Shown here: piece by piece, positions 21,434 to 54,617 of the stretch
Layout of the letters: each line of letters begins with the position of its first letter
Position numbering within the stretch: the stretch's first letter is position 1
From: Chloroflexota bacterium
Lineage (GTDB): Bacteria; Chloroflexota; Anaerolineae; Anaerolineales; Villigracilaceae
Reading direction: 5' to 3'
Assembly (NCBI GenBank): GCA_017743695.1
Contig: JAGHYK010000001.1
Coordinates: forward strand, 1-54,617
Length of the DNA: 54,617 nucleotides
Notes under the pieces: model-generated
Databases searched by the model: none
Told to the model about the DNA's origin: nothing
What the model saw: the letters and a program-made list of their open reading frames with translations, nothing else
Translations under genes and position numbers: made by a program

Positions 21434-21535
21434 GAGGTGCTCCTTTCTTTCAGGCAAAGGTGAGGCGACTGCCTCGTGAAAGCTGGCGCTCCATCTCGCT
21501 GTCCGCAGTCCACCATCTACATCGTCCATTAAACG

Positions 21536-24437: not shown

Positions 24438-25892
24438 TTAGCGCCACCGGTAAACGACCATGGGCATTTCCTCATAGGGCCAGGGGAGGCCGCGGTAAAC
24501 CACCTTGCGCCCGGCCTCCAGCGTGGGGTAGATGCCCTGCAGCACGATCAGGTATTGCACGCCCTGCGCATCCAGGTAACTGGCCAGGGCGTGTTCGTCG
24601 TTCATGAAAGGGATCACCTGCGGCGAGATCAGACCGGCCAGATCCACCAGCGGGTGCGTATCGAAATACCCCAGCGCGCCAATATCATGGGCGGCAATCA
24701 CCGCCTGCGGGGGGAGATTTACCTGCACCCAGCGCGCCGTATCCACCATTTGCGTCTCGATGAAGGCGACCTCCTGGGCATAAGCGTTGGCGCCGAAGAA
24801 CAGGTAAAGCACCAGCAACAGGGCAAAGCTCATTCGCCAGGCCGGCAGGCCGATCCTGGCCCATTTTCGGCGGGCGACCCGGCCGGCCAGGAGCAATCCT
24901 GAGACGCCCCACAGCAGCGAAAGCGGCAGGAGCGGCAGGATATAGCGCCCATGTTGATAGGGTGGCAGGCGCAGAAGGTAGATCATGAAAAATGCGCCCC
25001 ACCAGGCGAGCAATATCCATGAGGTGGGATGGAGCGGCGCCTCCCGTCGTCGCCACAGGTGGATGAAAAACCACACCATCCCCGGAAAAAGCAGCAGTAA
25101 GGCCCCATGCAGCCATTGCATCCCATATAAACCGAGGCGTTCCAAAAGGGATTTTTGCTGCCAGGAAAGGTACTCCGTCTGCTTGGCGTAAAATGTGTTC
25201 GGCCAGGGGTGTCCTTCCAGGATCAGGTTGAAGAGGAGATACAACCCGAAGAGCAGGCTGAAGCCGAGGGTCAGGTTCAGGAGGCGCCGCCAGCGTTCGC
25301 CGGAGGAGGGGGTGGGGCGCAGAAGCGCATCGAGGGCCAGGAAGGGGAAGAGGAGCACGCCATCCGGGCGCGTCCAGGTCGCCAGGGCGCAGAGGAGCCC
25401 CAGGGTCAGGTAGCGCGGCGCTGCGGTCAGCAGGCGGATGGCGATCAGCGTCAGGATCAGTGCGTGGAGCAGGGTCTCCATTCCCGAGGCGGCCATCCAC
25501 ACCATGCGCCATTCCAGGACGGCGATGATCCCCACCCAGGGCAGGTGCGGCTGGTAGAAGCTCAGCCAGCGACGGGCGGCGCTTTCCAGCAGCAAGCCCA
25601 TGCACCACAGGCCGAGGATCCCCAGTAACCAGGTCCAGAGATAGGGCGAGAGGCCGAGGCGAAAGCCGAAGGAGAGCAGGATGGTCCAGAGGGGAGAGGT
25701 GGAGCCAGCCGAGGGATGGCCGGGTAGAAAGCTCCATTCGGCGCGCTGTGCCAGGTTGCGGGCGTAGGTCTGGTGAATCCAGGCGTCATCCAGCGGAAAG
25801 CCAGGCCGAAAATAGAGCGCGGCCGCGCCCAGGAACAGGCTGACAGTGAGCAGGGAAAGGGCGAGCAGGATCAGAACGTGCGAACGGGGCAT
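24438..25892 (-). CDS. Polytopic membrane protein, probable GT-C fold glycosyltransferase
   Basis: 484 aa with more than 10 hydrophobic helices. First-loop acidic motif FPLDDAWIHQTYARN. The substrate cannot be inferred. Confidence 0.55.
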   Translation of the reverse strand: MPRSHVLILLALSLLTVSLFLGAAALYFRPGFPLDDAWIHQTYARNLAQRAEWSFLPGHPSAGSTSPLWTILLSFGFRLGLSPYLWTWLLGILGLWCMGLLLESAARRWLSFYQPHLPWVGIIAVLEWRMVWMAASGMETLLHALILTLIAIRLLTAAPRYLTLGLLCALATWTRPDGVLLFPFLALDALLRPTPSSGERWRRLLNLTLGFSLLFGLYLLFNLILEGHPWPNTFYAKQTEYLSWQQKSLLERLGLYGMQWLHGALLLLFPGMVWFFIHLWRRREAPLHPTSWILLAWWGAFFMIYLLRLPPYQHGRYILPLLPLSLLWGVSGLLLAGRVARRKWARIGLPAWRMSFALLLVLYLFFGANAYAQEVAFIETQMVDTARWVQVNLPPQAVIAAHDIGALGYFDTHPLVDLAGLISPQVIPFMNDEHALASYLDAQGVQYLIVLQGIYPTLEAGRKVVYRGLPWPYEEMPMVVYRWR

Positions 25893-26860: not shown

Positions 26861-29572
26861 TTACAGCGCATCGCCCAGCGACCGGGCTTGTTCCAGGAGT
26901 GCCTGTGGGGAGGGGAGGTGAATGTGGAGCACGCGCCGCCCCTGTGCCAGCAGGGCCTCCATGTCGCCTAAGGCCTGGGCGTATTGAAGGGTGCCGAAGG
27001 TCAACCCCTGGCCTGGGATGGGCAAATCCTGCTCGCGTGCGGCGGTGATCACGATGAACAGGCCGCGGTTGGGACCGCCTTTGTGATATTGCCCGGTCGA
27101 GTGCAGGAAACGCGGCCCGAAACCGAGGCTGACGGCGCAGCGAGTGCGGCGGCGCAGCGCACGTTGCAGCGATTCCAGCGCTTGCTCGAACTGGGGCAGA
27201 CGCGGCAGGAAGGCGTTCAGAGCAATGAAGTCGCCGGGTTGGGCCTGGGCCAGGAATGTATCCAGAGCGCGCAGGTCGTGTTGCGCGGGGAGCGGCGAGC
27301 GCAGGGTTTCTCCCTGCTGATAGCGCGCGATCTGCTGCCGGGCGCGCACTTTGGCATCCTCCACGTTCGGCTGATCGAAGGCGTTGATTTTGAGCCTGGC
27401 ACATGCAACGGCGGTAGCAAATTCCCAGCGATAAAACTCGGCGCCCAACGCGTAGGGAGAAGCAAGGTCGAAGATCACGATGGGATGGCCAGCCTGATGC
27501 AGGGCCTCCACCTGGGGCAGGATTTCCCCTGTTGAACGGAAATAGACGAACAGCCGATCCGGGGAGTATTCCTGTGGCAGGCCAACCTGTTCGCTGACGG
27601 GCAGGATGCCTTTGCCTTCCTTGCCACTGGATTCGGCGATCAGTTGTTCGATCCAGGCGGTGAAGGGCGCGACGGGCGGATCGGCGAGCAGGGTGAGGTT
27701 CTCGTACCCCTGGAGCGCAGCCTCGGCCAGGAGCAGGCCGGTCATCAGGCCTGGATTGCGCGCCATCTCTACCGGAGGCAGGCACTGGCGACGCATGACG
27801 CGGGCCTCGCCAAGCAGACGATCTCCATCAACGCCCAGCAGGGTTGCCGGAACCAGCCCGAACGCAGAGAGCGCCGAGTAGCGCCCTCCGACGTTGGGAT
27901 CGGCCAGGAAAAGGCGGCGAAAGCCGCGTTCCTGCGCCAGCGAGGCGAGCGAAGTGCCGGGATCGGTGATGGCGATCCATTGTTCCCCATTTCCCTTTAC
28001 CTGCTCCCAGAAGTAGTTGAAGAGGGCCATCACCTCCGCCGTCCCGCCCGATTTGCTGGAGACAATGAAGAGCGTTTGATCGAGGGGAAGAGAGGCAGCT
28101 TTCGCCTGAATTTCCTGCGGGTCGGTGGTATCGAAGATGATCCCTTCCAGGCCATGCCGTTCAAAGGGGAAGCGTGCCAGCACCTCCGTAGCCAGGGAAG
28201 ATCCGCCCATGCCCAGGAGGGCGAAGTGCGTGAAGCCGGCCTGGCGAATTTCTTCGGCAAAGGCGCGATATTCAGCAAGCTGCGATGGCATCTGGATCGG
28301 AAGGTCCAACCAGGCCAATCGCCGTCGTACCTCTGCCTGTCCCTGAGCGTCCTCTGTCCACAGCGTGGCATCTCCCTGCCACAGGCGCGAGACGAAATCC
28401 TGCGCCACGGAGGCGAGATGCTCCCTGACAGGGAACTGTAGTGGTCCCAGGTGAAGGCGCTGCGCCTGCAGCCGCTGGCGCAAGGTGTTTAAGAGGGCCT
28501 CAAACGCCTCTGCGAAGGCGCGCACGCCTTCTTCTTCCAGTTCTTGCATCACCTGATCCAGGGAAATGCCAAGCGCCTCCAGCTCCTGAAAGACCTGCCG
28601 CGCCTGTTCCAGATGGTCGCGGATCGTCATTCCCAGCCGGCCATGGTCGCGGAAGGCCTCTAAGGTCTGAGGTGGCACGGTGTTAACGGTGTGTGGGCCG
28701 ATCAGGTTGTCCACGTAGAGCGTATCCGGATAGGCTGGGTTTTTGGTGCTGGTGGAGGCCCAGAGAGGTCGCTGGAGACGGGCGCCGGCTGCGGCCAGAG
28801 CCTGCCAGCGTGGCCCGGAGAAGTACTCCTCAAACAGGGCATATGCCAGACGGGCGTTGGCAATCGCTGCCTGCCCGCGCAGGGCCGCAATGCGCTCCGC
28901 CTGAGGCGGCTCCGAGCGGAGCAGGGCTTCCAGGCGCGCGTCTATTTTCGTATCCAGCCGGGAGACGAAAAAGGAGGCGACCGAGGCTATCGAGTGCAGC
29001 GGCAGGCCGGCCCTCAGGCGATCTTCCAGGCCCGCCAGATAGGCCTCGATCACCTGGCGATAGCGCTCCAGGGAAAAGATCAGGGTGACATTGACGTTGA
29101 TGCCTTTCGCAATCGCCTGGCGAATGGCAGAGAGACCCTCTGTGGTGGCAGGAATCTTGATCATCAGGTTAGGGCGGTTCACCCGCTCCCAGAGCGCCTG
29201 GGCCTGTTCCACGGTGGGCTGAGGCTGATAGGCCAGCCGCGGGTCCACTTCCAGAGAAACGTAACCATCCTCCCCTTGCGTTTGTTCGTAGAGCGGCAGG
29301 AAGAGATCGCAGGCCTCTTGAATATCTTCAACGGCAAGCTGCCAGAAGACGCGTTCCTCCTCCCAGCCGGCCCAGGCCAGCGGTTGTAATGCATCGTCAT
29401 AGTCGCTGGTTTTGGCAATGGCGTTATGGAAGATGGTGGGGTTGGAGGTCACGCCGCGAATCTCACCGTTGCGGATCAGGCGTTCCAGTTCTCCATTGCG
29501 CAACAGGCGGCGCTGGATGTTATCGTACCAGAGCGATTGACCGTATTCGATCAGGCGAGTTGTCGGGAGCAT
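26861..29572 (-). CDS. Bifunctional transaldolase / glucose-6-phosphate isomerase fusion
   Basis: 903 aa. N-terminal transaldolase (GQSLWYDNI.., GVTSNPTIF, IKIPAT). C-terminal PGI (GMGGSSL, SKSGGTAE, FDQPNVE). Confidence 0.9.
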   Translation of the reverse strand: MLPTTRLIEYGQSLWYDNIQRRLLRNGELERLIRNGEIRGVTSNPTIFHNAIAKTSDYDDALQPLAWAGWEEERVFWQLAVEDIQEACDLFLPLYEQTQGEDGYVSLEVDPRLAYQPQPTVEQAQALWERVNRPNLMIKIPATTEGLSAIRQAIAKGINVNVTLIFSLERYRQVIEAYLAGLEDRLRAGLPLHSIASVASFFVSRLDTKIDARLEALLRSEPPQAERIAALRGQAAIANARLAYALFEEYFSGPRWQALAAAGARLQRPLWASTSTKNPAYPDTLYVDNLIGPHTVNTVPPQTLEAFRDHGRLGMTIRDHLEQARQVFQELEALGISLDQVMQELEEEGVRAFAEAFEALLNTLRQRLQAQRLHLGPLQFPVREHLASVAQDFVSRLWQGDATLWTEDAQGQAEVRRRLAWLDLPIQMPSQLAEYRAFAEEIRQAGFTHFALLGMGGSSLATEVLARFPFERHGLEGIIFDTTDPQEIQAKAASLPLDQTLFIVSSKSGGTAEVMALFNYFWEQVKGNGEQWIAITDPGTSLASLAQERGFRRLFLADPNVGGRYSALSAFGLVPATLLGVDGDRLLGEARVMRRQCLPPVEMARNPGLMTGLLLAEAALQGYENLTLLADPPVAPFTAWIEQLIAESSGKEGKGILPVSEQVGLPQEYSPDRLFVYFRSTGEILPQVEALHQAGHPIVIFDLASPYALGAEFYRWEFATAVACARLKINAFDQPNVEDAKVRARQQIARYQQGETLRSPLPAQHDLRALDTFLAQAQPGDFIALNAFLPRLPQFEQALESLQRALRRRTRCAVSLGFGPRFLHSTGQYHKGGPNRGLFIVITAAREQDLPIPGQGLTFGTLQYAQALGDMEALLAQGRRVLHIHLPSPQALLEQARSLGDAL

Positions 29573-45758: not shown

Positions 45759-45808
45759 GAGCCGTAAGACGTTTCCGGCGGCATTCCTGAGAATATCTGC
45801 CTGAAAGG

Positions 45809-45843
45809 GTAGCCATGTTGATCCGTGGCTACTCTATTTTTTA
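45809..45843 (+). terminator. Rho-independent terminator after the FGE-like gene
   Basis: Stem GTAGCCA (45809-45815) / TGGCTAC (45826-45832), followed by TCTATTTTTTA. Confidence 0.7.
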
Positions 45844-46079
45844 TTCCTTCCGCTTCACTCGATCATTTCCCTTTCACCATTCCCGTTCGTTGACGCTTAT
45901 CGCTGGCACTTCTGCGGTGCAGCTTCATCATATCCCTGATTCAACCCTGGGAGACTGGGGGTATTTCATGGTGGGCTTTAAGGCACGGAGGTTGTACCAT
46001 TCGGCGTTGTGCTTTTTGTCACAGAAAAGGTTGTGATTTTTGTCACTGTTTTTTGACCTCTTAAAGGGTTATTATATTA

Positions 46080-46091
46080 GTAAACGTTTAC
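46080..46091. promoter_or_regulatory. Perfect 12-bp palindrome GTAAACGTTTAC, 30 nt upstream of the Rrf2 start (candidate operator)
   Basis: It lies just downstream of TTGACC (46053-46058) and an A/T-rich TATATT stretch (46073-46078). A duplicated TTTTTGTCAC word sits at 46013-46045. Confidence 0.4.
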
Positions 46092-46120
46092 GTTGCTTGT
46101 CATTGTACGGAGACCCGCCT

Positions 46121-46555
46121 GTGAACCGAATTAATCGCAAAACGGATTATGCTGTTCGTATCCTGCTGGCTCTTGCACGTCGTGGGGAAGGAGCCATTGC
46201 ATCTACTCTGACGATCCGGGAAGAGATGTTGCTCCCGGCAGCGCTCACGCGTCGCATTGTGGCCGACCTGGCGCGTGGGGGTTTTCTGGTGACATATCCT
46301 GGCCGGGATGGAGGCATTCAACTGGCACGACCTCCAAGAGAAATTACGCTTTTGCAGGTGGTAGAGTTTTTTGAAGGTCCCGTTCACGTCTCCGAATGCA
46401 TTGAGGGCAAAGTAGAGTGCCCTTTTGAACTGCATTGCCCTGTGCGCCGCCAGTGGGCCAGGGTAGATCAGGCAATTGTTAAGATTTTGTCGGAGATCAG
46501 TTTTGCCGATCTGGCAGAGGAATCCATCCCCGAAGGGGTTTCACTGAATTCGTGA
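46121..46555 (+). CDS. Rrf2-family transcriptional regulator with a three-Cys cluster
   Basis: GTG 46121 gives VNRINRKTDYAVRILLALA (Rrf2 N-terminal wHTH). The C-terminal part has SECIEGKVECPFELHCP (C-X6-C-X5-C), like Fe-S-binding IscR/NsrR-type members. Confidence 0.8.
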   Translation: MNRINRKTDYAVRILLALARRGEGAIASTLTIREEMLLPAALTRRIVADLARGGFLVTYPGRDGGIQLARPPREITLLQVVEFFEGPVHVSECIEGKVECPFELHCPVRRQWARVDQAIVKILSEISFADLAEESIPEGVSLNS

Positions 46556-46565
46556 GGGAATCATC

Positions 46566-47222
46566 ATGCGCTGGCTCTATGCTTTTTCCCTGCTTTTGAT
46601 CGCTTCGGCTCTGGCTTTCAAAATTTTCCAGCCTATTCAAGTGTTGCCACGCATTCGCCTGGCCCCGGCGTTTTCAATGGTGGATCAGAACGGTGAGCGG
46701 CTGACCAGCGACCGATTGCAGGGGCAGATTACCCTCTATACGTTTACCTATACTCGCTGTACTGCTCCTTGCGTGAATCCAGATTTGATGATGCAGGAAA
46801 TTCAACGTCGCCTGGCAGAAGAACCTCTCTCCACGCCTGTCAGCCTGGTGAGCATTTCTTTCGACCCGCAGCATGACACCCCCGATGTCTTGCGAACCTA
46901 TGCGGAGCGTGTGGGCGCGGAACGAGGGCGATGGTATATTGCCACAACCTCCGATGAAAGTCTGCTCAAAACCATCATCGGAGCAGGCTTTGAAGTTTAC
47001 TATCAGCCACGCGCCGATGGAAGTTTTGACTTTTCGCCGGTCTTCATCCTCGTAGATGGATGGGGTATTGTTCGTGGAGAATATCGTTACCAGACAGAGG
47101 TGCCGACCGTGGAACGTATTCTTCGGCATTTGCGAGTTTTGGATGAAGAGGTGCGCAACAGTCACGGAGTAGCCCGCCTGGCTTATGAGGCAGCCCACTT
47201 ATTCCTCTGCTATGCGCAGTAG
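46566..47222 (+). CDS. SCO1/SenC-family protein, atypical paralog
   Basis: TM anchor, CTAPC motif (46758-46772), SFDPQHDTP. The segment aligning with the Cu-ligand His of Sco proteins reads FDFSPVFILVDGWG (no His). Confidence 0.75.
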   Translation: MRWLYAFSLLLIASALAFKIFQPIQVLPRIRLAPAFSMVDQNGERLTSDRLQGQITLYTFTYTRCTAPCVNPDLMMQEIQRRLAEEPLSTPVSLVSISFDPQHDTPDVLRTYAERVGAERGRWYIATTSDESLLKTIIGAGFEVYYQPRADGSFDFSPVFILVDGWGIVRGEYRYQTEVPTVERILRHLRVLDEEVRNSHGVARLAYEAAHLFLCYAQ

Positions 47223-47335
47223 AAATTTATTGAGAGAGCACAAATTCTGTAACCTGTGCATGGTATTTGCATCTATATAAGAAAATTTTTGAGAAAGCGC
47301 GGCAGGGATTTTCAAGCGACACAGGAGGCCAGACA

Positions 47336-47929
47336 ATGAAAAATTGGTGGAAAGCATTTTTGGGAGCATTTATTTTGATAGGGTTGATTGCGTGGGGCTG
47401 GTGGCGCTTTGCACCGTATAGCTTTCATGGAATGGTGATGCAATCGCCTGAGCCGGCACCTGATTTTACTTTGCTCAGCAAGGATGGCCCGGTTTCGCTC
47501 AGCGACTTTCGCGGTAAATATGTGCTTTTGTATTTTGGATATACCTTCTGCCCGGATGTTTGTCCGGCCACACTGGCGAACCTTGCTCAAGCGCTCCATC
47601 AAATCGGGAGGGGCGCCGAGCGGGTACAGGTCATCATGGTGTCTGTGGATCCGGAACGGGATACTCCAGAGAAAATCGGGGAATATGTGGCTCATTTTGA
47701 TTCTTCTTTCATTGGGCTAAGCGGCGATCCCAAAGACATAGCGCGCATTGCCTCCCTGTATGGCATTTTCTATGAAAAGGAGGAGGTTGCGGGGGCAGCC
47801 GGTTATCTGGTGACCCATACCGCCAGCGTACGCGTGATCGACCCGGAGGGACGATTGAAGCTGATCTGGCCCTTTGGCGCTACTCCTGACGAGATAGCCC
47901 AGGACCTGAAATTTTTGTTGCGGAGGTGA
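47336..47929 (+). CDS. SCO1/SenC-family copper chaperone (canonical)
   Basis: ATG 47336 after AGGAGG. TM anchor, CPDVCP (47549-47563), SVDPERDTP, YLVTHTASVRVIDPEG (His present). Confidence 0.85.
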   Translation: MKNWWKAFLGAFILIGLIAWGWWRFAPYSFHGMVMQSPEPAPDFTLLSKDGPVSLSDFRGKYVLLYFGYTFCPDVCPATLANLAQALHQIGRGAERVQVIMVSVDPERDTPEKIGEYVAHFDSSFIGLSGDPKDIARIASLYGIFYEKEEVAGAAGYLVTHTASVRVIDPEGRLKLIWPFGATPDEIAQDLKFLLRR

Positions 47930-47933
47930 AAAA

Positions 47934-48380
47934 ATGCGAAGAAAGAGATTTGTTTTTCTGCTGCTTCTCCTTGCTCTTTTGCTCACCGCCTGTGGGGGGA
48001 AGAAAGGTGGTCTGCGCGTGGAAGGCGCGTGGGGGCGTCCTTCACCCAAGATGGCCATGGCCGGTGCGTTCTACATGACCATCTATAATGATGGGGCGCA
48101 GGATGACCGCCTGATTTCGGCTGCTTCACCGGCTTGTGGTACGGTCGAGTTGCACGAATCTTATATGACCCCTGAAGGCGCGATGGGAATGCGACCGGTC
48201 GCGGGGGGCATTCCGGTGCCGGCCAAAGGCAAAGCTGAGCTGAAGGTAGGGGGGCTGCACATTATGTGCATTGATGTCAAAGAAGGCTTCGAGGTTGGCA
48301 AGAAAGTCCCCTTGACCCTTCACTTTGAGAAAGGAGGTGACCTCTCGGTTGAGGTTGAAATCCGTCAGGAAGCGCCTTGA
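47934..48380 (+). CDS. PCu(A)C copper chaperone (DUF461) lipoprotein
   Basis: Lipobox LLLTAC. Met/His copper motifs (LHESYM.., GAMGM, GGLHIMC). Confidence 0.8.
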   Translation: MRRKRFVFLLLLLALLLTACGGKKGGLRVEGAWGRPSPKMAMAGAFYMTIYNDGAQDDRLISAASPACGTVELHESYMTPEGAMGMRPVAGGIPVPAKGKAELKVGGLHIMCIDVKEGFEVGKKVPLTLHFEKGGDLSVEVEIRQEAP

Positions 48381-48414
48381 GTTTTTTAAATTTCATCTTT
48401 GAAAGGAGGCAGAT

Positions 48415-48540
48415 ATGAAAAATCAAGAAGAGTTCCAGCCTAAAGGCACGGTGGCAATCCTGGTCGTGTTCGTCATCACCCTGATTGTGCTCTGGGGCAC
48501 GATCTACCTGACTCTGCTGCAACGAGGAGGAACAGTATGA
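48415..48540 (+). CDS. cbaD: ba3-type cytochrome c oxidase subunit IIa (single-TM mini-subunit)
   Basis: 41-aa ORF absent from the ORF track: [53 protein letters not shown] upstream. Its stop overlaps the subunit II start (ATGA). It resembles Thermus subunit IIa (..EEKPKGALAVILVLTLTILVFWLGVYAVFFARG) as recalled. Confidence 0.7.
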   Translation: MKNQEEFQPKGTVAILVVFVITLIVLWGTIYLTLLQRGGTV

Positions 48541-49028
48541 GCACCACTTCTTTGCACGTTCATCCCTACGAGAAGCGGTGGATCATTTTCAGCATCGTCC
48601 TGCTGATCGTATTCACCGCAGCGGTGGCTATTGCAGCCTTTGCATTGGGCATTCAGGTGCCCTCGCCGGAGCAGCGAGTGGATCCGCGAACGGTGGCCGT
48701 AGATCCCAATAGTCCCTGGTCCAATCCGGGGCTGCGGGAGATTGCCCCTGGACGTTATGAGGCCTATATCCTGGCTCAAACCTGGCAATTCCAGCCGCGG
48801 GAAATTCGAGTCCCGGTTGGCTCGCGGGTGACCTTTTACGTCACCAGTAAAGACGTGCAGCATACTTTCAAAATCCAGGATACCAACATCAACGTGCAGG
48901 TTGTGCCTGGGCAGGTCTCGAAACTGACGGTCACCTTTAAGAAACCTGGCACCTATCCGTTCATTTGCAGTGAATACTGTGGGGTAGGCCATGCCGGCAT
49001 GTTCGGACAAATCATAGTTACCCCGTAA
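48537..49028 (+). CDS. cbaB: ba3-type cytochrome c oxidase subunit II (CuA)
   Basis: One TM helix plus a cupredoxin domain with DVQHTF and the CuA motif [12 protein letters not shown]. Confidence 0.9.
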
Positions 49029-49038
49029 GGAGGGCGCG

Positions 49039-50691
49039 ATGACAGCTCAAACCTATTCCCTTTCACCGAAAGAAAAGTCTTTTGTCTCCTGGCATCTGCT
49101 TGTAGCCATGGTAGCGCTGGCGCTGGGCACTCTTTTTGGCCCACTTCAGGCTTTTGAGCATGCCGGGTTGAACCTTTATCCTTTCTTGCAGCCGCTGATC
49201 AAGTCCTACTATCAGGGATTAACCCTGCATGGGGTGCTCAACGCGCTGGTGTGGACGACCTTCTTCATCACCGGTTTTCTGACGTTCAATGTCATCTATG
49301 GCCTGAAGCGTCCGCTGCGCTATCCCACGTTGAATCAGGTCGGTTTCTGGCTGATGATCGTTGGCCTGGTGATGGCGGCGATTCCCATCCTGCTCAACAA
49401 AGCCTCCGTGTTGTATACCTTCTATCCGCCAATGAAAGCACACTGGGCCTACTACGTGGGGCTGACGCTGGTTGTGGTGGGCAGTTGGGTGGAGGGATAT
49501 GGGTTCTATTTCACCTATGCTGCCTGGCGTAAGGAAAATCCGGGTGAACGGACTCCTTTCATTGCCTTTGCCAGCGTGCTGACCATGGTTTTGTGGCAGA
49601 TTGCCACGTTGGGCGTGGCAGTGGAAATGTTGACCATGCTCATCCCGTGGTCTCTGGGGTTGATCGAGACGGTTGATCCACAGCTGGCGCGTACCTATTT
49701 CTGGTTCACCGGTCACCCGCTGGTATATTTCTGGCTGCTGCCGGCGTACATCTCCTGGTACGCGATGCTGCCGAAGCAGGTGGGCGGCAAGATGTTCAGC
49801 GATTCCCTGGCGCGGCTCGCTTTCTGGCTGTTCTTGCTGCTCTCTGTGCCACTCGGCTTTCACCACCAGTATGTGGATCCGGGTGTGCCGGCTGGCTGGA
49901 AGTTCGTTCATGCCGTGTTGACCTTCTCGGTTTTCTTCCCCTCCTTGCTGACTGCCTTTACGGTCATCGCTTCCCTGGAATATGGGGCGCGGAAGAACGG
50001 CGGTACCGGGCTGTTCCGCTGGGTACTGGCTTTGCCGTGGCGCGATCCCTCGGTGGCAGCACAATTGCTGGCGGGGCTGCTGTTCTTCTTCGGTGGAATT
50101 GGTGGTCTGGCCAACGCGGCTTACAATGTCAACCTGGAACTACATAACACAACGTTTGTTCCTGGCCATTTCCACCTCACCGTTGCGACCGGCGTCACTC
50201 TGACCTTTATGGGCGTCTCGTACTGGCTTGTACCTTATCTCACCGGCAAAAAGCTCTGGAAGCCGGACCTGGCGCGCTGGCAGGCGTGGCTCTGGTTTAT
50301 CGGGATGATCATCTTTTCAAACGCGATGCATGTGCTGGGCATCCTGGGCGCGCCGCGCCGCACGCCGCTGGGCGATGCGCCTTACGTTCCTGCGGAGTGG
50401 AACAGCCGTTTGCTCCAGGTGGGCATTGGCGGCGGTATTCTCTTCATCAGTGCTATCCTGTACTTCGCGGTGATGATCGGCACTGCCTTCAGCAAAGTTA
50501 AGGTGGAGAAGGAGGTCGAGGTGCCGGTGGCCGAAGCGCTGCAACCTGTCTCCCAAACGCCTGCCTGGCTGGATCGCTGGGCGCCCTGGGTGTATGCCGC
50601 TCTGGCGCTGATCGTGATTGCCTATGGGCCTCAACTCTATGAACAGATTCGGAACATCTCGCTGACCTCGCCTGGATTCCGCGTCTGGTGA
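49039..50691 (+). CDS. cbaA: ba3-type (B-family) cytochrome c oxidase subunit I
   Basis: [52 protein letters not shown]. It aligns along its length with Thermus CbaA as recalled. Confidence 0.95.
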
Positions 50692-50779
50692 GCGTTTGCT
50701 TACTCTCAGAAGGGGCGGGCCTCTTCTGGGGGCTCGCCTCTTTATATGGCTGGTGGCAATTTTAATTACAGGTTGAGCC

Positions 50780-52999
50780 ATGAGGAACCAATCGTTGGAA
50801 ATGGTAGGAGCACGGCTACTACGTTGGATAGAACGAGTCTCGCGCCGCATCGAGCAACCACTGGCGCACCTGATCGGAGATGCGCGCTTGAATCCGCTTT
50901 ATCATACCGGCACGATCACGATCTTTCTTCTGGTGGTGATCCTGTTGACAGGGATTTATCTCACCATGTTCTATCCGTTCGGTTTCACGCTTTCGTACGA
51001 GGCCGTGAGCCGCATGGAGCAGAACCCTATCAGCCGCGTGATCCGTGCTTTGCACCGTTACGCCTCGGATGGGGCAGTGATTTTTGCCCTTCTTCATGCC
51101 TGGCGCACTTTTTTCCAGGATCGGTTTCGCGGCCCGCGCTGGCTGGCCTGGGTCACCGGCGTGGGGTTGGCGCTCCTGGTCTGGTTGATTGGCGTGAGTG
51201 GCTACTGGTTGATTTGGGATGAACGCGCCCAGTGGATCTCACGCGTTTTCAGCGATATGCTCTCTCACTGGCAGGGCGGAGAGTCTTTTCTCGTCCGCTT
51301 CTTCGTTGGTGAGCGTGCTGGAAGTGGATGGGAATTTTTGCTGATGGTCTTGTTGTTCCATTTGGGAATCTCCGCGCTGGTGGGGCTGTTTCTGTGGTGG
51401 CATCTTCAACGTCTGCGGCGTCGGCGCTGGCTGCCGCCTTCATTCTGGATGGGCATTGTGGGAGGCCTGTTGTTGCTGATTGCGCTCATCTTCCCTGTGG
51501 GGATGCTCCCTCCTGCCAACCCGGCGCACTGGTCACCTGCTTTTCCATTGGACTGGTTCTATCTTTTCTTCTTGCCTTTGTGGCAAAATCGCTGGCTCTG
51601 GCTCGGTTGGATCGCCTTGATCGCCCTTTTGATGCTTACTGCCTTGCCCTGGTTGTGGAAAGGCGATCCTTTGCGACGCGCGGTGGTGGACCTCTCGCGT
51701 TGTGACGGATGCACCCTGTGTGAACGTGATTGCCCTTATGGCGCAATACGGATGGTACCGCGCACAGACGGCGCCCGTGCGAAGTGGGAAGCAGAGGTGG
51801 ATGCTTCGCTTTGTGTAGGGTGTGGGATTTGTCTGGGGAGCTGTCCAACGCTCGCGCTTTCTTTAACCCCTTCCCCGCTTGTAACCTTAGAATCTTTGGA
51901 CGAGCATTTCAGCACGCATTTGCCTCGCAATGTCATTTTCCTGTGTTCCCATTTGCCTGAGCCGCCCTCTTCTCCAGAAACCGCTACTGTCATTCGGGTA
52001 TCTTGTACGGGAATGCTCAACCCGGCTTTACTGGGAAAGTGGTTTGGCGATGGGCTGGAAGAGGCGCAAATCATCGGATGCCCCGCGGAGGATTGTGCCA
52101 ATCGGGAGGGGAACCGATGGACCGAGGAGCGCATGCGCGGCCGACGCTTGCCGCGCTTGAAAGAGGCATTTCGATCTCGCGTTCATACTGCATGGGTGGC
52201 CTTTCTCAGTACCTGGCCAAAAGCTGGGAATGTGAACACCCCTGTGACTGCCTATGCTCCTGTTTCCTGGTCGCAGGTAAAGCGTCCTGCGCTACTGGCA
52301 GTTGTGGTGATGATAGCGTTATTGGGCTTACCTCTTGCACTTTCCCTCATTCCTTTCCGGTTAGATTCTCATCCTTCGTTGATCGTCTATGGCTGGCATC
52401 AGGCTGGTCATCCCTTGCGAGGCATTGAGCCACCGGTTCCTGTAGCCTCGCCAGAAAAAGCCCCTTTGCGCCTGGTCCTCGAAGTCAACGGTAAACAAGT
52501 TGCAGAAAGGAGTACGCAGCGAGAGGAAATGCCCTTTTTCATCCACTTTCCTCTTGAGCAAGGTCAAAATCAGGTGCGCATTCTTTTGCACGATCCTGCT
52601 TTTGCCTCACCGCAGGTACTTTTTGACCAAAAAGTGGAGGTAAGCGCTGGAGAAGTATTCAGTCTGGGATATTACGATGAACGCAAAGGCGGGGATGCAA
52701 AGCAAGGTGAACGTCTGTTTTCTGAGCGGGTGGTTGGTGTGAATACGGGATGTCACATTTGCCATTCTTTGCAGCCGGATGTCGTCATCGTGGGGCCTTC
52801 GCTGGCGGGAATTGCCACCCGTGCAGCCAGTCGCATTCCCGGCATGAGCGCCGAGGAATATATCCGCCAATCTATTCTGCAACCGAATGCCTATGTGGTG
52901 CCGGGATTTCCGTCGGGCGTAATGCCCCCTAATTTTTCGGAAATCTTGACTCCTGAGCAGATTGATGATTTGGTAGCTTTTTTGCTCACCCTGAAATAG
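50780..52999 (+). CDS. Fusion protein: di-heme cytochrome b domain - extra TM helices - 2x[4Fe-4S] ferredoxin - MvhD/FlpD-like domain - TM helix - unknown domain - class I cytochrome c
   Basis: Two HX13H pairs (His codons 51053/51095 and 51359/51401). CDGCTLCERDCP (from 51701) and CVGCGICLGSCP (from 51812). VIFLCSH..VIRVSCTGML..IIGCPAEDCANREGNRW. CHICH at 52751-52765 with a downstream GVMPP. Confidence 0.8.
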   Translation: MRNQSLEMVGARLLRWIERVSRRIEQPLAHLIGDARLNPLYHTGTITIFLLVVILLTGIYLTMFYPFGFTLSYEAVSRMEQNPISRVIRALHRYASDGAVIFALLHAWRTFFQDRFRGPRWLAWVTGVGLALLVWLIGVSGYWLIWDERAQWISRVFSDMLSHWQGGESFLVRFFVGERAGSGWEFLLMVLLFHLGISALVGLFLWWHLQRLRRRRWLPPSFWMGIVGGLLLLIALIFPVGMLPPANPAHWSPAFPLDWFYLFFLPLWQNRWLWLGWIALIALLMLTALPWLWKGDPLRRAVVDLSRCDGCTLCERDCPYGAIRMVPRTDGARAKWEAEVDASLCVGCGICLGSCPTLALSLTPSPLVTLESLDEHFSTHLPRNVIFLCSHLPEPPSSPETATVIRVSCTGMLNPALLGKWFGDGLEEAQIIGCPAEDCANREGNRWTEERMRGRRLPRLKEAFRSRVHTAWVAFLSTWPKAGNVNTPVTAYAPVSWSQVKRPALLAVVVMIALLGLPLALSLIPFRLDSHPSLIVYGWHQAGHPLRGIEPPVPVASPEKAPLRLVLEVNGKQVAERSTQREEMPFFIHFPLEQGQNQVRILLHDPAFASPQVLFDQKVEVSAGEVFSLGYYDERKGGDAKQGERLFSERVVGVNTGCHICHSLQPDVVIVGPSLAGIATRAASRIPGMSAEEYIRQSILQPNAYVVPGFPSGVMPPNFSEILTPEQIDDLVAFLLTLK

Positions 53000-53015
53000 T
53001 GGGCGTAAAATAACG

Positions 53016-53043
53016 CTGAACCCAGGGAATCTTCCCTGTTCAG
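53016..53043 (+). terminator. Bulged stem-loop between the fusion gene and the cytochrome c gene (possible attenuator/processing site)
   Basis: CTGAAC-cc-AGGGA aatct TCCCTGTTCAG, followed by AAAATTTTC. There is no clean U-tract. Confidence 0.35.
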
Positions 53044-53073
53044 AAAATTTTCAAAAGAAAGGAGTGTAGTGAC

Positions 53074-53487
53074 ATGAGAGTGTATCTCCTATCCGTTGTG
53101 CTGGTCGTGTTGAGCCTGGTGCTGGGCGCCTGTGGCGGTGGTGGCGGAGCGCAATCAGCGGCGACGCCCACCCTCCCGGCTCCCCCTGCAGCCTACGCCG
53201 GCAAGACCAATCCTCTCGGCCCCGATGCTGCTGAAGCCGGGAAGCAGGTTTTTACCACCTATTGTGTGTCCTGCCACGGAGAACAGGGCCATGGGGATGG
53301 GCCGGCAGCCGCCTCGCTCGATCCAAAGCCAAAGAACATTGCCGAGCTGCAAAAGGTGGCAGGAGATGATTTCCTCTTCTGGCGCATTTCGGAGGGCGTA
53401 GAGGGAACAGCCATGGTCGCCTGGAAGACGACGTTGAAGGAAGAGGAAATCTGGCAAGTCATTGCCTATCTGCGCACCTTGAAATAA
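53074..53487 (+). CDS. Lipoprotein class I cytochrome c (c552-like candidate electron donor)
   Basis: Lipobox LVLGAC, Gly-rich linker, CVSCHG heme motif, distal GTAMVAW Met. RBS AAAGGAG upstream. Confidence 0.85.
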   Translation: MRVYLLSVVLVVLSLVLGACGGGGGAQSAATPTLPAPPAAYAGKTNPLGPDAAEAGKQVFTTYCVSCHGEQGHGDGPAAASLDPKPKNIAELQKVAGDDFLFWRISEGVEGTAMVAWKTTLKEEEIWQVIAYLRTLK

Positions 53488-53528
53488 AACAACCTGCCAT
53501 CCACTTGTTCATGGCGTGGTTTGGCCTG

Positions 53529-53570
53529 CTCTGTCCAACGGTCTGAGAATGACTGTTGGACAGAGTTTTC
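53529..53570 (+). terminator. Rho-independent terminator closing the respiratory cluster
   Basis: 11-bp stem CTCTGTCCAAC (53529-53539) / GTTGGACAGAG (53555-53565), followed by TTTTC. Confidence 0.7.
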
Positions 53571-53602
53571 TAAATGCCTGCTGGGATCGTGGAGATGGGC
53601 AG

Positions 53603-54076
53603 TGACCGTGGACGATAGACGGCGGAATGGACGAGGGATGGCAGATCGTGATGGGTGGACAGGTTTTCAAGTCTGTCAGCGGGATGGTGTGCGCCTCTTG
53701 CCTGGGATTGGAGGCAGTGCCAGGTTAGGTTCTGCACATCAGCTTTTCGTATAGCCAGGATAACCTGAAGCCTGGAGAGACACAACGATAGACGGCAGAG
53801 CTCAGGTTTTCCGCCCTTTTGGGGATTACCGTCAATGAATGGGGAATGAAAGCGGACTGTGGACAGCAGACGGCAGATGGCAGAGCCCAGGCTTTCTGGC
53901 CTGTCAGAGGGTGATCGTCAACTTATCAGACAGCTTGACTGCTTTGGGATTGCTTCGTCGCAAAGAACGCTTCTCGCAGTGACGTACACATAAGCGAATG
54001 GGACCGCGTATGGTGTACAGTAGACAGCGTAGTCCAGGCTTTCCAGCCTGTTGGGTAGTGACCGTCAATGAACGAG
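53603..54076 (-). repeat. Cluster of reverse-orientation copies of the modular element
   Basis: GGACGATAGACGG-type tracts. Hairpins CAGGCTttctGGCCTG (53888-53903) and CAGGCTttccAGCCTG (54035-54050). Each is followed by ..GATCGTCAAC / GACCGTCAATGAACGA, the reverse complement of TTCGTTGACGG. Also GGGGATTACCGTCAATGAA at 53821-53839. Confidence 0.75.
53946..53983 (-). repeat. GTCATTGCGAG..CGAAGCAATC family copy (reverse orientation)
   Basis: gggattgcttcgtcgcaaagaacgcttctcgcagtgac; near-identical to 54408-54446. Confidence 0.8.
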
Positions 54077-54090
54077 GAGCAAAGGGAAGA

Positions 54091-54262
54091 AACCTTTGTA
54101 CCTTTTTGGTTTATTTTTTTACTTAAAAATAAAGGCGTGAAGGCAAAAATGAAATAAATTTTATTAATTTTCATTAAATTTTTTGAATATAAAATGTTTT
54201 GAATTCGTGTAGCCAATACAACCCCAAACATCAAGATTAAAAAAGCATAATTTAACTGCAAA
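54091..54262. other. AT-rich island (about 170 bp) in an otherwise GC-rich region
   Basis: Runs such as tttattttttttacttaaaaataaa (9-bp A/T hairpin) and aaatgaaataaattttattaattttcattaaattttttgaatataaaatg. It is flanked on both sides by dispersed repeat copies. Confidence 0.7.
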
Positions 54263-54346
54263 GGCCCCAAAGTTTCACCACGGAAACACGAAGTCACAAA
54301 GTTCCCTTTTCATTTGCTTATCCTCGTGTCGTAACTATTCAGCCAT

Positions 54347-54446
54347 GTCATTGCGAGCCGTTTTCTGGCGAAGCAACCTCCCGTTTCTCAAGCCAACTTG
54401 ATCGCTTGGGGATTGCTTCGTCGCAAAGAACGCTCCTCGCAATGAC
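54347..54446. repeat. Inverted pair of GTCATTGCGAG..CGAAGCAA units
   Basis: Forward unit gtcattgcgagccgttttctggcgaagcaacc (54347-54378). Reverse unit ggggattgcttcgtcgcaaagaacgctcctcgcaatgac (54408-54446). Confidence 0.8.
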
Positions 54447-54567
54447 AAACACAACCGTTTTGATGCAAGACTGAACAGTTACCTCGTGTCTCCGTGTGAT
54501 ACTGTATCATTCGTTCAGGAAATTCGCAGCGAGTCGCCCGAAAGCCATGAAAAACCCTCCGCCTCCT

Positions 54568-54617
54568 GTCATTGCGAGCGTAGCGAAGCAATCTCCTGGC
54601 CGATAGGGGGATTGCTT
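54568..54617. repeat. Second inverted pair of the same family, truncated by the window end
   Basis: gtcattgcgagcgtagcgaagcaatc (54568-54593), then gggggattgctt (54606-54617) begins the reverse unit. Confidence 0.7.

Follow-up and report, generated by a model that had tools for sequence, protein, structure and literature searches.

Short cytochromes b working together with cytoplasmic oxidoreductase subunits have been proposed as the ancestors of the bc complexes (Dibrova et al., PMC5600118), and for the subfamily-G complexes of Rieske proteins and cytochromes b either bifurcation or coupling to NAD(P) was suggested (Dibrova et al. 2017, PMC5600118). In Ferrigenium straubiae, the operon of an eNOR, a nitric oxide (NO) reductase, contains two "rather unusual" genes for proteins of the composition cytochrome b-[Fe-S]-FAD-NADH and cytochrome b-[Fe-S]; both were detected in the proteome and speculated to take part in a quinol:NAD+ oxidoreductase supercomplex (bioRxiv 10.64898/2026.01.22.701106, a 2026 preprint). 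The eNOR enzyme has been characterized with TMPD (tetramethyl-p-phenylenediamine)/ascorbate as donor, the cytochrome b-Fe-S genes being unmentioned (PMC11214002). RME88945.1, a protein combining cytochrome b6, a DMSOR-beta-like part, FlpD, and a "C1" cytochrome c, appears as an uncommented entry of an appendix table (PMC8756737). Here we analyzed a 739-aa protein of this kind, referred to as the fusion, which is encoded by an uninterrupted open reading frame (ORF) at 50780..52999 (including the stop codon) on the + strand of a 54,617-nt stretch of DNA from a Chloroflexota bacterium (contig JAGHYK010000001.1 of assembly GCA_017743695.1, Anaerolineales, Villigracilaceae). This stretch, at its full length, is called the window below.

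The fusion joins a di-heme cytochrome b, a 2x[4Fe-4S] ferredoxin, an MvhD/FlpD-like domain, and a cytochrome c within a single polypeptide and is encoded directly downstream of the two subunit genes of a ba3-type oxidase. It is no one-off, but a member of a large and conserved family already deposited in databases under the uninformative names "hydrogenase iron-sulfur subunit" and "cytochrome b N-terminal domain-containing protein", whose tight coupling to oxidases and eNORs has barely been noticed. A preliminary description of the DNA knew of no characterized protein with this full domain order; congruently, we found none in the literature, the PDB, or NCBIfam, nor any biochemical or structural characterization of the family in the full-text literature and these two databases. 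As to function, we tentatively propose, at slightly less than even probability, that the fusion serves the upstream oxidase alone, as its electron-input subunit or as a partner that it cannot do without, and works as an outward-directed transmembrane wire.

Domain composition and cofactor ligands

The reading frame, the His pairs, the Fe-S motifs, the CHICH site, and the Met-Pro-Pro of the preliminary description were reproduced at exactly the same positions, and the four kinds of domain that it had named for checking (Cytochrome_B, Fer4, FlpD, and Cytochrom_C) all scored above the Pfam cut-offs. Pfam hits were judged against the curated cut-offs and NCBIfam hits against the models' own. Cytochrome_B (PF00033) covers residues 36-209 with 57.8 bits against a cut-off of 27.2, residues 301-360 are matched by Fer4_6 (44.7 bits), Fer4 (40.6), and Fer4_7 (39.4), all above their cut-offs, FlpD (PF02662) covers residues 399-454 (35.7 against 22.3 bits), and Cytochrom_C (PF00034) residues 643-739 (31.8 against 21.3 bits). 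None of the NCBIfam models reached its cut-off, the best partial matches being the b-type cytochrome ExtP, cytochrome b6, and HdrA2. The sub-cut-off alignment to the latter pairs residues 300-473 with HdrA2 571-749, i.e., with its C-terminal part composed of ferredoxin and MvhD.

The N-terminal part is a cytochrome b6-like four-helix di-heme core (residues ~36-209, 50885..51406), identified consistently by Pfam, by profile comparison with the PDB, and by Foldseek. Its two HX13H pairs consist of H92 (51053) and H106 (51095) as well as H194 (51359) and H208 (51401). These had been read as ligands of two b hemes, and all four His are indeed invariant and align to the His ligands of cytochrome b6. 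When the family profile was compared with the PDB, cytochrome b6 was the best match (75 bits), while the cytochrome b of bc1 scored ~36 bits. The core is followed by a fifth transmembrane (TM) helix, a loop on the outer (P) side, and a sixth helix (residues ~220-295, 51437..51664; hydropathy and Foldseek), carrying the motif P-x-D258-x-F-Y-L-F-x-L-P. Foldseek aligned 255-320 columns of the structural model to long bc1 cytochromes b and 180-210 columns to the four-helix b6, which suggests that these helices and their loop match the start of the subunit-IV/C-terminal region. TM5, loop, and TM6 are thus the probable counterpart, at the level of the model, of helix E, ef loop, and helix F of a long cytochrome b or subunit IV.

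Two conserved sites in this part are located on the P side. W146-D147 lies in the cd-helix segment (IWDE), aligned with the PWGQ/PWDQ of bc-type proteins, and is invariant among the homologs carrying heme c and near-invariant in the wide family described below. The column of D258, compared in 137 wide-family sequences, contains 129 Asp and 6 Asn. We initially equated D258 with the Glu of the PEWY motif, but reduced this to a resemblance on motif level since hhalign gave no alignment there: the E/ef/F region was left unaligned in the comparison of the family profile with spinach PetD and bovine cytochrome b, which served as a lead only.

A third position of interest is occupied by H42 of the H-T-G-T sequence in helix A (50903..50914), located at the CxGG (heme cn) position of b6f. 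HMMER aligned NPLYHTGT with NIFYCxGG, placing H42 on Cys35 of b6. A [T/S]G at the CxGG position is rare in bc-type cytochromes b and typical for the di-heme anchors of dehydrogenases (Dibrova et al., PMC5600118). H42 is invariant in the heme-c subfamily, whereas the same column of the 137 wide-family sequences contains 68 His, 20 Tyr, 16 Gln, and others including Phe and Arg; eNOR-linked relatives have Tyr, Gln, Phe, or Arg here. Because of this variability (H/Y/Q/F/R), H42 is not a family-defining ligand and its role as a universal ligand of a third heme at the heme-cn site was rejected. It may serve as the ligand of an extra heme or as a contact to the first [4Fe-4S] cluster.

The ferredoxin domain (51680..51859; Fer4 family hits) contains two CX2CX2CX3CP motifs starting at C308 (51701) and C345 (51812), giving the cluster ligands C308/311/314/318 and C345/348/351/355. 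It is followed by the MvhD/FlpD-like domain (51929..52195) with C389, C409, C434, and C439, which presumably binds a [2Fe-2S] cluster. The resemblance of this four-Cys segment to MvhD/FlpD had been noted from its Cys pattern, and besides the Pfam FlpD score it is borne out by alignment, in which C409, C434, and C439 pair with Cys of the solved MvhD structures 9sw2_D and 5odc_D. The corresponding part of the model superposes on 5odc_D with a root-mean-square deviation of 2.7 A over 108 columns (Foldseek).

Beyond a seventh TM helix, ~150 residues had been described as free of any recognized motif. This stands with respect to cofactor motifs; in addition, however, a beta-sandwich domain was confidently modeled at residues ~530-635 (52367..52684), with a predicted local distance difference test (pLDDT) score of 80-95. 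For an assessment of its identity, the C-terminal part was modeled separately and compared with the PDB by Foldseek, which ruled out a degenerate Rieske or cupredoxin domain. Only weak generic matches of the Ig-like, CARDB, and FnIII kind were obtained (best E = 3e-3, none at E <= 0.001). The protein ends in a class I cytochrome c domain (52697..52996; Cytochrom_C) with C658-H-I-C661-H662 (52751-52765) and M715, followed by two Pro, as the putative axial ligand. This domain matches the cytochrome c domain of the Rhodothermus caa3 subunit II (1w2l, 44 bits, profile against PDB).

Membrane topology

Topology was derived from a simple hydropathy calculation combined with the positive-inside rule. 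The Arg-rich N-terminus is placed inside the cell and followed by the helices A (46-68), B (~84-108, with H92 and H106), C (122-145), and D (183-209, with H194 and H208). The D-E loop is strongly basic (RLRRRRW) and inside; helix E (220-245), the P-side loop (246-269), and helix F (270-294) come next. Helix F runs directly into the ferredoxin domain, and residues 295-495, with both [4Fe-4S] motifs and the MvhD-like domain, are cytoplasmic. After a further Arg/Lys-rich stretch on the cytoplasmic side, helix 7 (497-527, 52268..52360; hydropathy peak 2.77, helix 497-522 in the model) returns the chain to the outside, leaving residues 528-739 external. The heme c domain comes to lie outside because it is C-terminal to TM7.

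The alignment was also used to calculate an AlphaFold2 model, which reached only a medium quality (pLDDT 69, predicted template modeling score 0.63) but is consistent with the hydropathy layout. The arrangement on which the original idea of a transmembrane connection depended, i.e., Fe-S/MvhD part in the cytoplasm, heme c outside, and a di-heme b6-like bundle in between, is therefore supported by the predicted topology of six TM helices, Fe-S/MvhD domains, a seventh TM helix, and an external part.

Conservation and linkage to the oxidase

Among 5.8 billion proteins searched, at least 120 homologs match the fusion over its full length, with 44-99% identity, ~99% coverage, and lengths of 740-820 aa. 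They originate from many independent assemblies, mainly metagenome-assembled genomes of Anaerolineales and other Chloroflexota, and include a 99%-identical 739-aa protein on a separate record (P0001). All ligands are invariant in 28 aligned full-length homologs (44-83% identity): the four heme-b His, eight ferredoxin Cys, four Cys of the MvhD region, C658/C661/H662, and M715, a degree of invariance far above chance. With one genome considered per GTDB species, relatives were found in 148 genomes of Anaerolineae, Caldilineae, and, unexpectedly, Acidimicrobiia/Actinomycetota.

The genomic surroundings were examined at 80 loci, 66 of which provide at least 2 kb of upstream sequence and thus form the basis for counts of upstream genes. 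Among the 80 loci, 77 of 77 full-length copies share the architecture including the C-terminal CxxCH. Whether homologs always neighbor cbaAB had been raised as a check, and they almost always do. When ORFs are judged strictly, 58 of 66 loci have the pair cbaB-cbaA immediately upstream of the fusion and in the same orientation, a number that rises to ~63 of 66 with tblastn; cbaA is found within 2.2 kb in two further loci and is lacking in L061. The cross-link Tyr is kept in all 58 subunit I sequences, which identifies them as O2 reductases. SCO1 paralogs, PCuAC, and Rrf2 genes recur across the loci, with both SCO1 types present in most of them and the Rrf2 gene found ~4 kb upstream of the fusion in ~28. 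In ~15 loci the next gene after the fusion encodes a small cytochrome c, an arrangement also seen in the window.

Another recurring gene, absent from the window, encodes a ~140-aa lipoprotein directly downstream of the fusion in either orientation. It was observed in 44 loci (L002-L078, e.g., L009:12256-12681), its consensus (GADAPADNVP..YGG..QWLV.G.IQEG.G.LEGN..YTVTVNGELYG..E.AYPN) had no Pfam hit, and it may represent a further component of the system.

A Rieske gene had been reported missing from the window, and a six-frame motif search of the whole window was indeed empty. Rieske genes are absent from 71 of the 80 loci and present in nine. In six of these nine (L040, L042, L043, L044, L045, and L049) the Rieske protein is part of a separate canonical complex ~5 kb downstream. 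The one in L045 (L045:13524-18859) comprises a 697-aa GltD-like protein (Fer4_20 + Pyr_redox_2 + Fer4), cytochrome b6, a 260-aa unannotated protein, Rieske, and a triheme cytochrome c; judged by its gene content, it is an anammox-like "subfamily G" arrangement in Chloroflexota.

Neither hydrogenase (MvhAG) nor HdrABC partners were found in the window or among the recurrent neighbors of the 80 loci. Components of alternative complex III (ACIII; ActB, NrfD-like ActC/F, and penta-heme ActA) gave no Pfam hits in the 44-54.6 kb cluster and the ten largest other window ORFs scanned. The fusion itself has no NarI- or Ni_hydr_CYTB-type hit in Pfam or NCBIfam; within the family, Ni_hydr_CYTB matched a single relative, weakly and below threshold. 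An assignment of the fusion to the Hdr/Mvh, ACIII, or NarI-type systems was therefore rejected, neither supporting genes nor domain hits being present.

The wide family

When 1.84 billion representative proteins were scanned exhaustively with HMMER, the core of cytochrome b, 2x[4Fe-4S] ferredoxin, and MvhD extended to 386 clusters (50% identity) at E < 1e-30. The heme c domain is missing in 101 of 120 (~85%) complete representatives that have the cytochrome b, ferredoxin, and MvhD ligands. Across 137 sequences the heme-b His are kept in 129-131, the ferredoxin Cys in 132-134, and C389/C409/C434/C439 in 123-133. Profile searches located members in Verrucomicrobiales, Spirochaetes/Turneriella, Vulgatibacter (Myxococcota), SAR324, Thermodesulfobacteriota, and Anaerolineae, and also revealed a sister architecture, in which the same cytochrome b (E ~1e-100) is fused to Fer2 + FAD_binding_6 + NAD_binding_1.

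As a context sample, ten wide-family proteins from unrelated places were looked up on their own contigs, and ten out of ten were found in operons of heme-copper oxidases or eNOR-type enzymes, typically together with SCO1 and UbiA/CtaA. Downstream of the fusion, L082 encodes a NuoF-like protein (Complex1_51K + NADH_4Fe-4S) and another cytochrome b-Fer4 protein. L088 and L089 contain an FNR-type and an MvhD-type cytochrome b fusion side by side between two COX1-like genes, adjoined by NirS, NnrS, hemerythrin, and Crp/Dnr genes (L088:8001-13554, L089:4439-10087). Subunit I reads GHSSQQ in three operons (L082, L083, and L088), a Gln thus replacing the cross-linked Tyr, which is the published signature of the eNOR nitric oxide reductases (PMC8756737, PMC11214002); the CuA ligands of subunit II are kept in all of them. 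The eNOR-type operons carry one or two cytochrome b-Fe-S fusions (FNR-type and MvhD-type), and their additional COX1-like gene is degenerate (43 bits to PF00115). Operons with short forms, the eNOR-type ones included, encode a separate ~175-aa protein homologous to the TM7 plus beta-sandwich part of the long forms, showing that this segment exists in nature as a gene of its own in some distant relatives. The window protein belongs to the heme-c-bearing, O2-reductase-linked branch of a broad cytochrome b-Fe-S family associated with B-family oxidases and eNORs.

Proposed function and alternatives

Since a CuA-type oxidase takes electrons only from the P side, the heme c end of the fusion would be the outlet to the oxidase, with which the protein may be physically associated, and the fusion its dedicated supplier. 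A cytoplasmic reductant, i.e., a flavoprotein or ferredoxin not encoded in the operon, would dock to the MvhD-like domain and reduce its [2Fe-2S] cluster, from where electrons would travel through the two [4Fe-4S] clusters to the inner (N-side) heme b and on to the P-side heme b (bP). The next step would lead to the tethered heme c, possibly by way of a quinone bound in a Qo-like pocket, and finally to CuA of subunit II, either directly or through the lipoprotein cytochrome c. In this manner the oxidase would be fed from cytoplasmic reducing power, bypassing the quinone pool as well as Rieske/bc1 or ACIII. A rough charge count gives ~0.5 charges per electron (-1 for the outward electron, +1 for the O2 chemistry, and ~0.5 H+ for the B-family pump), so that the wire would be a pathway of low yield and high driving force.

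In favor of this wire are the above-cut-off scores and invariant ligands of all four modules, the inside-to-outside topology, the tight linkage to cbaB-cbaA, and the heme-copper oxidase context of every sampled member of the core family lacking heme c. NAD(P)H-input modules of the FNR and NuoF type, which are part of some relatives and lie next to others, are a further reason for our preference. A module of Fer2, FAD, and NAD domains is nearly always an NAD(P)H-oxidizing input, as in NqrF and the oxygenase reductases. It is further favored by the lack of a Rieske centre and of any P-side cofactor besides bP in most family members, by the reasoning that redox potential and membrane potential both favor the outward direction, and by its physiological aptness for heterotrophic microaerophiles such as Anaerolineae and for the scavenging of NO and O2.

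Several points weigh against the wire. The operons of Chloroflexota and Acidimicrobiia have no conserved gene for a cytoplasmic donor, and in the one publication commenting on relatives, electrons were suggested to flow the other way, from quinol to NAD+ (bioRxiv 10.64898/2026.01.22.701106). The structural model is of moderate confidence. W146-D147 and the two extra helices with their P-side loop and near-universal D258 are retained, and they speak against a pure wire because in bc complexes such elements only build the quinol-oxidizing P site; if a bound quinone acted as relay between bP and heme c, however, a wire and a conserved pocket would be compatible. In addition, six loci also encode a canonical Rieske/cytochrome b6 complex nearby, so the roles are possibly more intricate than that of a simple wire.

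The retained P-side elements lead to the main rival explanation, which we regard as somewhat less probable than the wire: a bc-type complex without Rieske protein and Qi site, in which the cd helices and the ef-type loop would make up a Qo-like pocket on the P side, where menaquinol would be oxidized and D258 would accept the proton. It could be non-bifurcating, both electrons ending on heme c, or bifurcating, one electron passing to heme c, CuA, and O2 and the other through the P- and N-side hemes b and the Fe-S/MvhD chain to NAD(P)+ via a flavoprotein, or to ferredoxin. The fold, b6/bc1-like up to helices E and F, the near-invariance of W146-D147 and D258 across the wide family, and the placement of heme c on a single-TM tether with spacer domain, resembling that of Rieske or c1, are all in agreement with it. 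A CuA oxidase moreover requires a donor on the level of cytochrome c, and the operon encodes no other quinol:cytochrome c oxidoreductase. Complexes of subfamily G, whose cytoplasmic Fe-S subunits bind NAD(P), are known and are expressed (PMC5600118), one of this kind adjoining the fusion operon in L045, and quinol:NAD+ activity was proposed for the eNOR-operon relatives (10.64898/2026.01.22.701106). Yet a Rieske centre is missing, heme bP is the only P-side redox cofactor in ~85% of the wide family, and profile comparison did not detect an equivalence of D258 with the Glu of PEWY. Inward flow to NAD+ would be opposed by both the redox and the membrane potential, it is not obvious why heterotrophic Anaerolineae should require reverse electron flow, and the FNR-like and NuoF-like modules of relatives are usually NAD(P)H-oxidizing inputs. 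Taken to its furthest consequence, the fusion would be the core of a new type of complex III, bifurcating menaquinol between ba3 (via heme c) and a cytoplasmic low-potential acceptor, with O2 (or NO in the eNOR-linked relatives) driving the reduction of NAD(P)+ or ferredoxin, and a living "membrane-anchored dehydrogenase" ancestor of the bc complexes; we consider this unlikely.

Electrons could also leave the cytoplasm for another purpose, namely the assembly or maintenance of the oxidase, keeping the thiols or copper of Sco and PCuAC reduced or handling heme during maturation of the CuA/CuB enzyme. The constant co-location with the assembly genes SCO1, PCuAC, UbiA, and CtaA, seen in the narrow family as well as in the wide one, fits such a role, which nevertheless appears quite improbable. 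A 740-aa protein with five cofactors would be extravagant for this task, and known systems use thiol-based carriers (CcdA/DsbD, TlpA). The fusion gene is also located 3' of the structural genes cbaBA rather than amid the chaperone genes, and the Ferrigenium relatives are abundant enough for detection in the proteome (10.64898/2026.01.22.701106). That the ORF might be a chimera, generated by mis-assembly or by a frameshift joining separate genes, was pointed out in the preliminary description as a means of refutation. The full-length homologs from independent assemblies with their ~99% coverage, the uniform architecture of the 77 genomic copies, and the 99%-identical protein P0001 reduce this to a practically negligible probability, and the artefact was rejected in favor of a genuine fusion.

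The wire as the preferred reading would have consequences beyond this locus. B-family oxidases and the recently recognized eNORs are widespread. The family is genetically welded to these enzymes across at least six phyla and is therefore an obvious and strong candidate for the physiological electron donor that is missing in most lineages. If the wire is true, self-sufficient, NAD(P)H- or ferredoxin-dependent O2/NO reductases bypassing the quinone pool would exist, changing models of energy yield and N2O emission for wastewater Chloroflexota, Accumulibacter-type, and iron-oxidizing bacteria. A Rieske-less bifurcating quinol oxidase, if this is what the fusion represents, would be a new class of complex III with a bearing on bc-complex evolution. 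Either way, a single polypeptide with five metal centres spanning the membrane offers a compact system for the study of transmembrane electron transfer.

The operon and further features of the window

The fusion is the seventh of eight co-directional genes (46040-53487, all on the + strand) in the order Rrf2, SCO1-like, SCO1, PCuAC, cbaB, cbaA, fusion, and cytochrome c. Its earlier placement between cbaA and a lipoprotein cytochrome c in a ba3 operon agrees with the Pfam and PDB matches of the neighbors. The cluster starts with the Rrf2-family regulator (46040..46555, Rrf2 105.9 bits), just 5' of which a strong, terminator-like hairpin is located (45806-45835). Three genes for copper chaperones follow, a SCO1/SenC-like protein with a CTAPC motif (46566..47222, SCO1-SenC 67.6 bits), a SCO1/SenC protein with a CPDVC motif (47267..47929, 147 bits), and the lipoprotein PCuAC (47934..48380, 119.6 bits). 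cbaB (48537..49028) encodes the B-family subunit II with its CuA motif and has the Thermus thermophilus ba3 subunit II as best PDB match (142.7 bits). cbaA (49039..50691) encodes subunit I of the B-family (ba3-type) O2 reductase, with 319.9 bits to COX1 in Pfam and 484 bits to the Thermus thermophilus ba3 subunit I as best PDB match; it contains the HH pair as well as GHPLVY, the motif of the His-Tyr cross-link. Downstream of the fusion, the lipoprotein mono-heme cytochrome c (53074..53487) shows the lipobox LGAC, the heme motif CVSCH, and hits to Cytochrome_CBB3 (51.8 bits) and Cytochrom_C (47.5 bits). A recent duplication of the fused heme c domain was rejected as its origin, blastp aligning 21 residues at E = 0.005.

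The tail of the window after this gene (53490-54617) is non-coding and rich in short repeats. It includes a 63-nt repeat in two copies with 86% identity (53928-53990 and 54391-54453), a 52-nt pair (53870/54017), a 39-nt pair, four 16-nt GACG..GGCAGA units, and a 15-nt hairpin at 53529-53565. No tRNA genes were found in the window. Four large ORFs on the - strand were recorded elsewhere: a 903-aa ORF (26861-29572) combining transaldolase (TAL_FSA, 294.6 bits) and phosphoglucose isomerase (PGI) into a bifunctional pentose-phosphate/glycolysis fusion; an 864-aa ORF (2219-4813) with DHH/DHHA1, two CBS domains, and a poly(A) polymerase/CCA-adding head with RNA-binding region; a 716-aa protein (19379-21529) with two N_BRCA1_IG Ig-like domains (182 bits); and a 484-aa ORF (24438-25892) lacking any Pfam hit at E <= 1e-5.

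Comparison with known systems

The cytochrome b part is closest to those of b6f, bc1, and bcc, with which it shares the four-helix di-heme bundle, His pairs in helices B and D, the cd-helix segment, and two further helices with a P-side loop. Unlike these, the fusion has no Rieske partner, no CxGG heme-cn motif, and no detectable PEWY homology. Both of its His pairs have a 13-residue spacing, only two instead of three or four helices follow helix D, and cytoplasmic Fe-S domains are attached where the Qi-side terminus would be expected. The subfamily-G Rieske/cytochrome b complexes of the anammox bacterium Kuenenia (PMC5600118, citing Kartal 2011/2013 and de Almeida 2016) have a short b6-like cytochrome b and a cytoplasmic Fe-S chain in common with it. 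They keep the Rieske protein, subunit IV, and a separate GltD-like Fe-S flavoprotein, whereas the fusion has its ferredoxin, MvhD, and cytochrome c parts fused, no flavin domain, and a tie to a B-family oxidase.

The eNOR operon of Ferrigenium straubiae shares membership in the wide family and the gene order subunit II, subunit I, heme o synthase, sco1, and cytochrome b fusions, and the same layout was found in L082, L088, and L089. It differs in its partner, an eNOR-type NO reductase (Gln, GHSSQQ), in the lack of a fused heme c, and in the presence of an FNR-type paralog. With MvhD and HdrA2 of the methanogen Mvh-Hdr system, the fusion has the block of 2x[4Fe-4S] ferredoxin and MvhD in common; in contrast to that system, it has no hydrogenase, HdrA flavoprotein, or HdrBC nearby, is anchored to a bc-type cytochrome b, and occurs in aerobic or microaerobic bacteria. 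NarGHI, HdrED, QmoABC, and DsrMK follow the same logic of two transmembrane b hemes joined to a cytoplasmic Fe-S chain. Their NarI/HdrE-type cytochromes b, however, belong to another family, and their operons encode a cytoplasmic catalytic subunit, while the only catalytic partner of the fusion is an oxidase fed from the P side.

In terms of electron path, the NOX/FRE reductases are an analogous case, leading from a cytoplasmic input through two stacked b hemes to an acceptor at the outer face, and the analogy is close because sister proteins of the fusion carry Fer2-FAD-NAD modules. It is an analogy only, since these reductases are not homologous to the fusion: they have another heme-domain fold, no Fe-S clusters, and no heme c. 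The outlet proposed for the fusion finally has its counterpart in the caa3 oxidases and the actinobacterial bcc-aa3 supercomplexes, where a membrane-tethered cytochrome c likewise passes electrons to CuA without any soluble carrier; there, however, its fusion partner is either subunit II or the QcrC of a complex that contains a Rieske protein.

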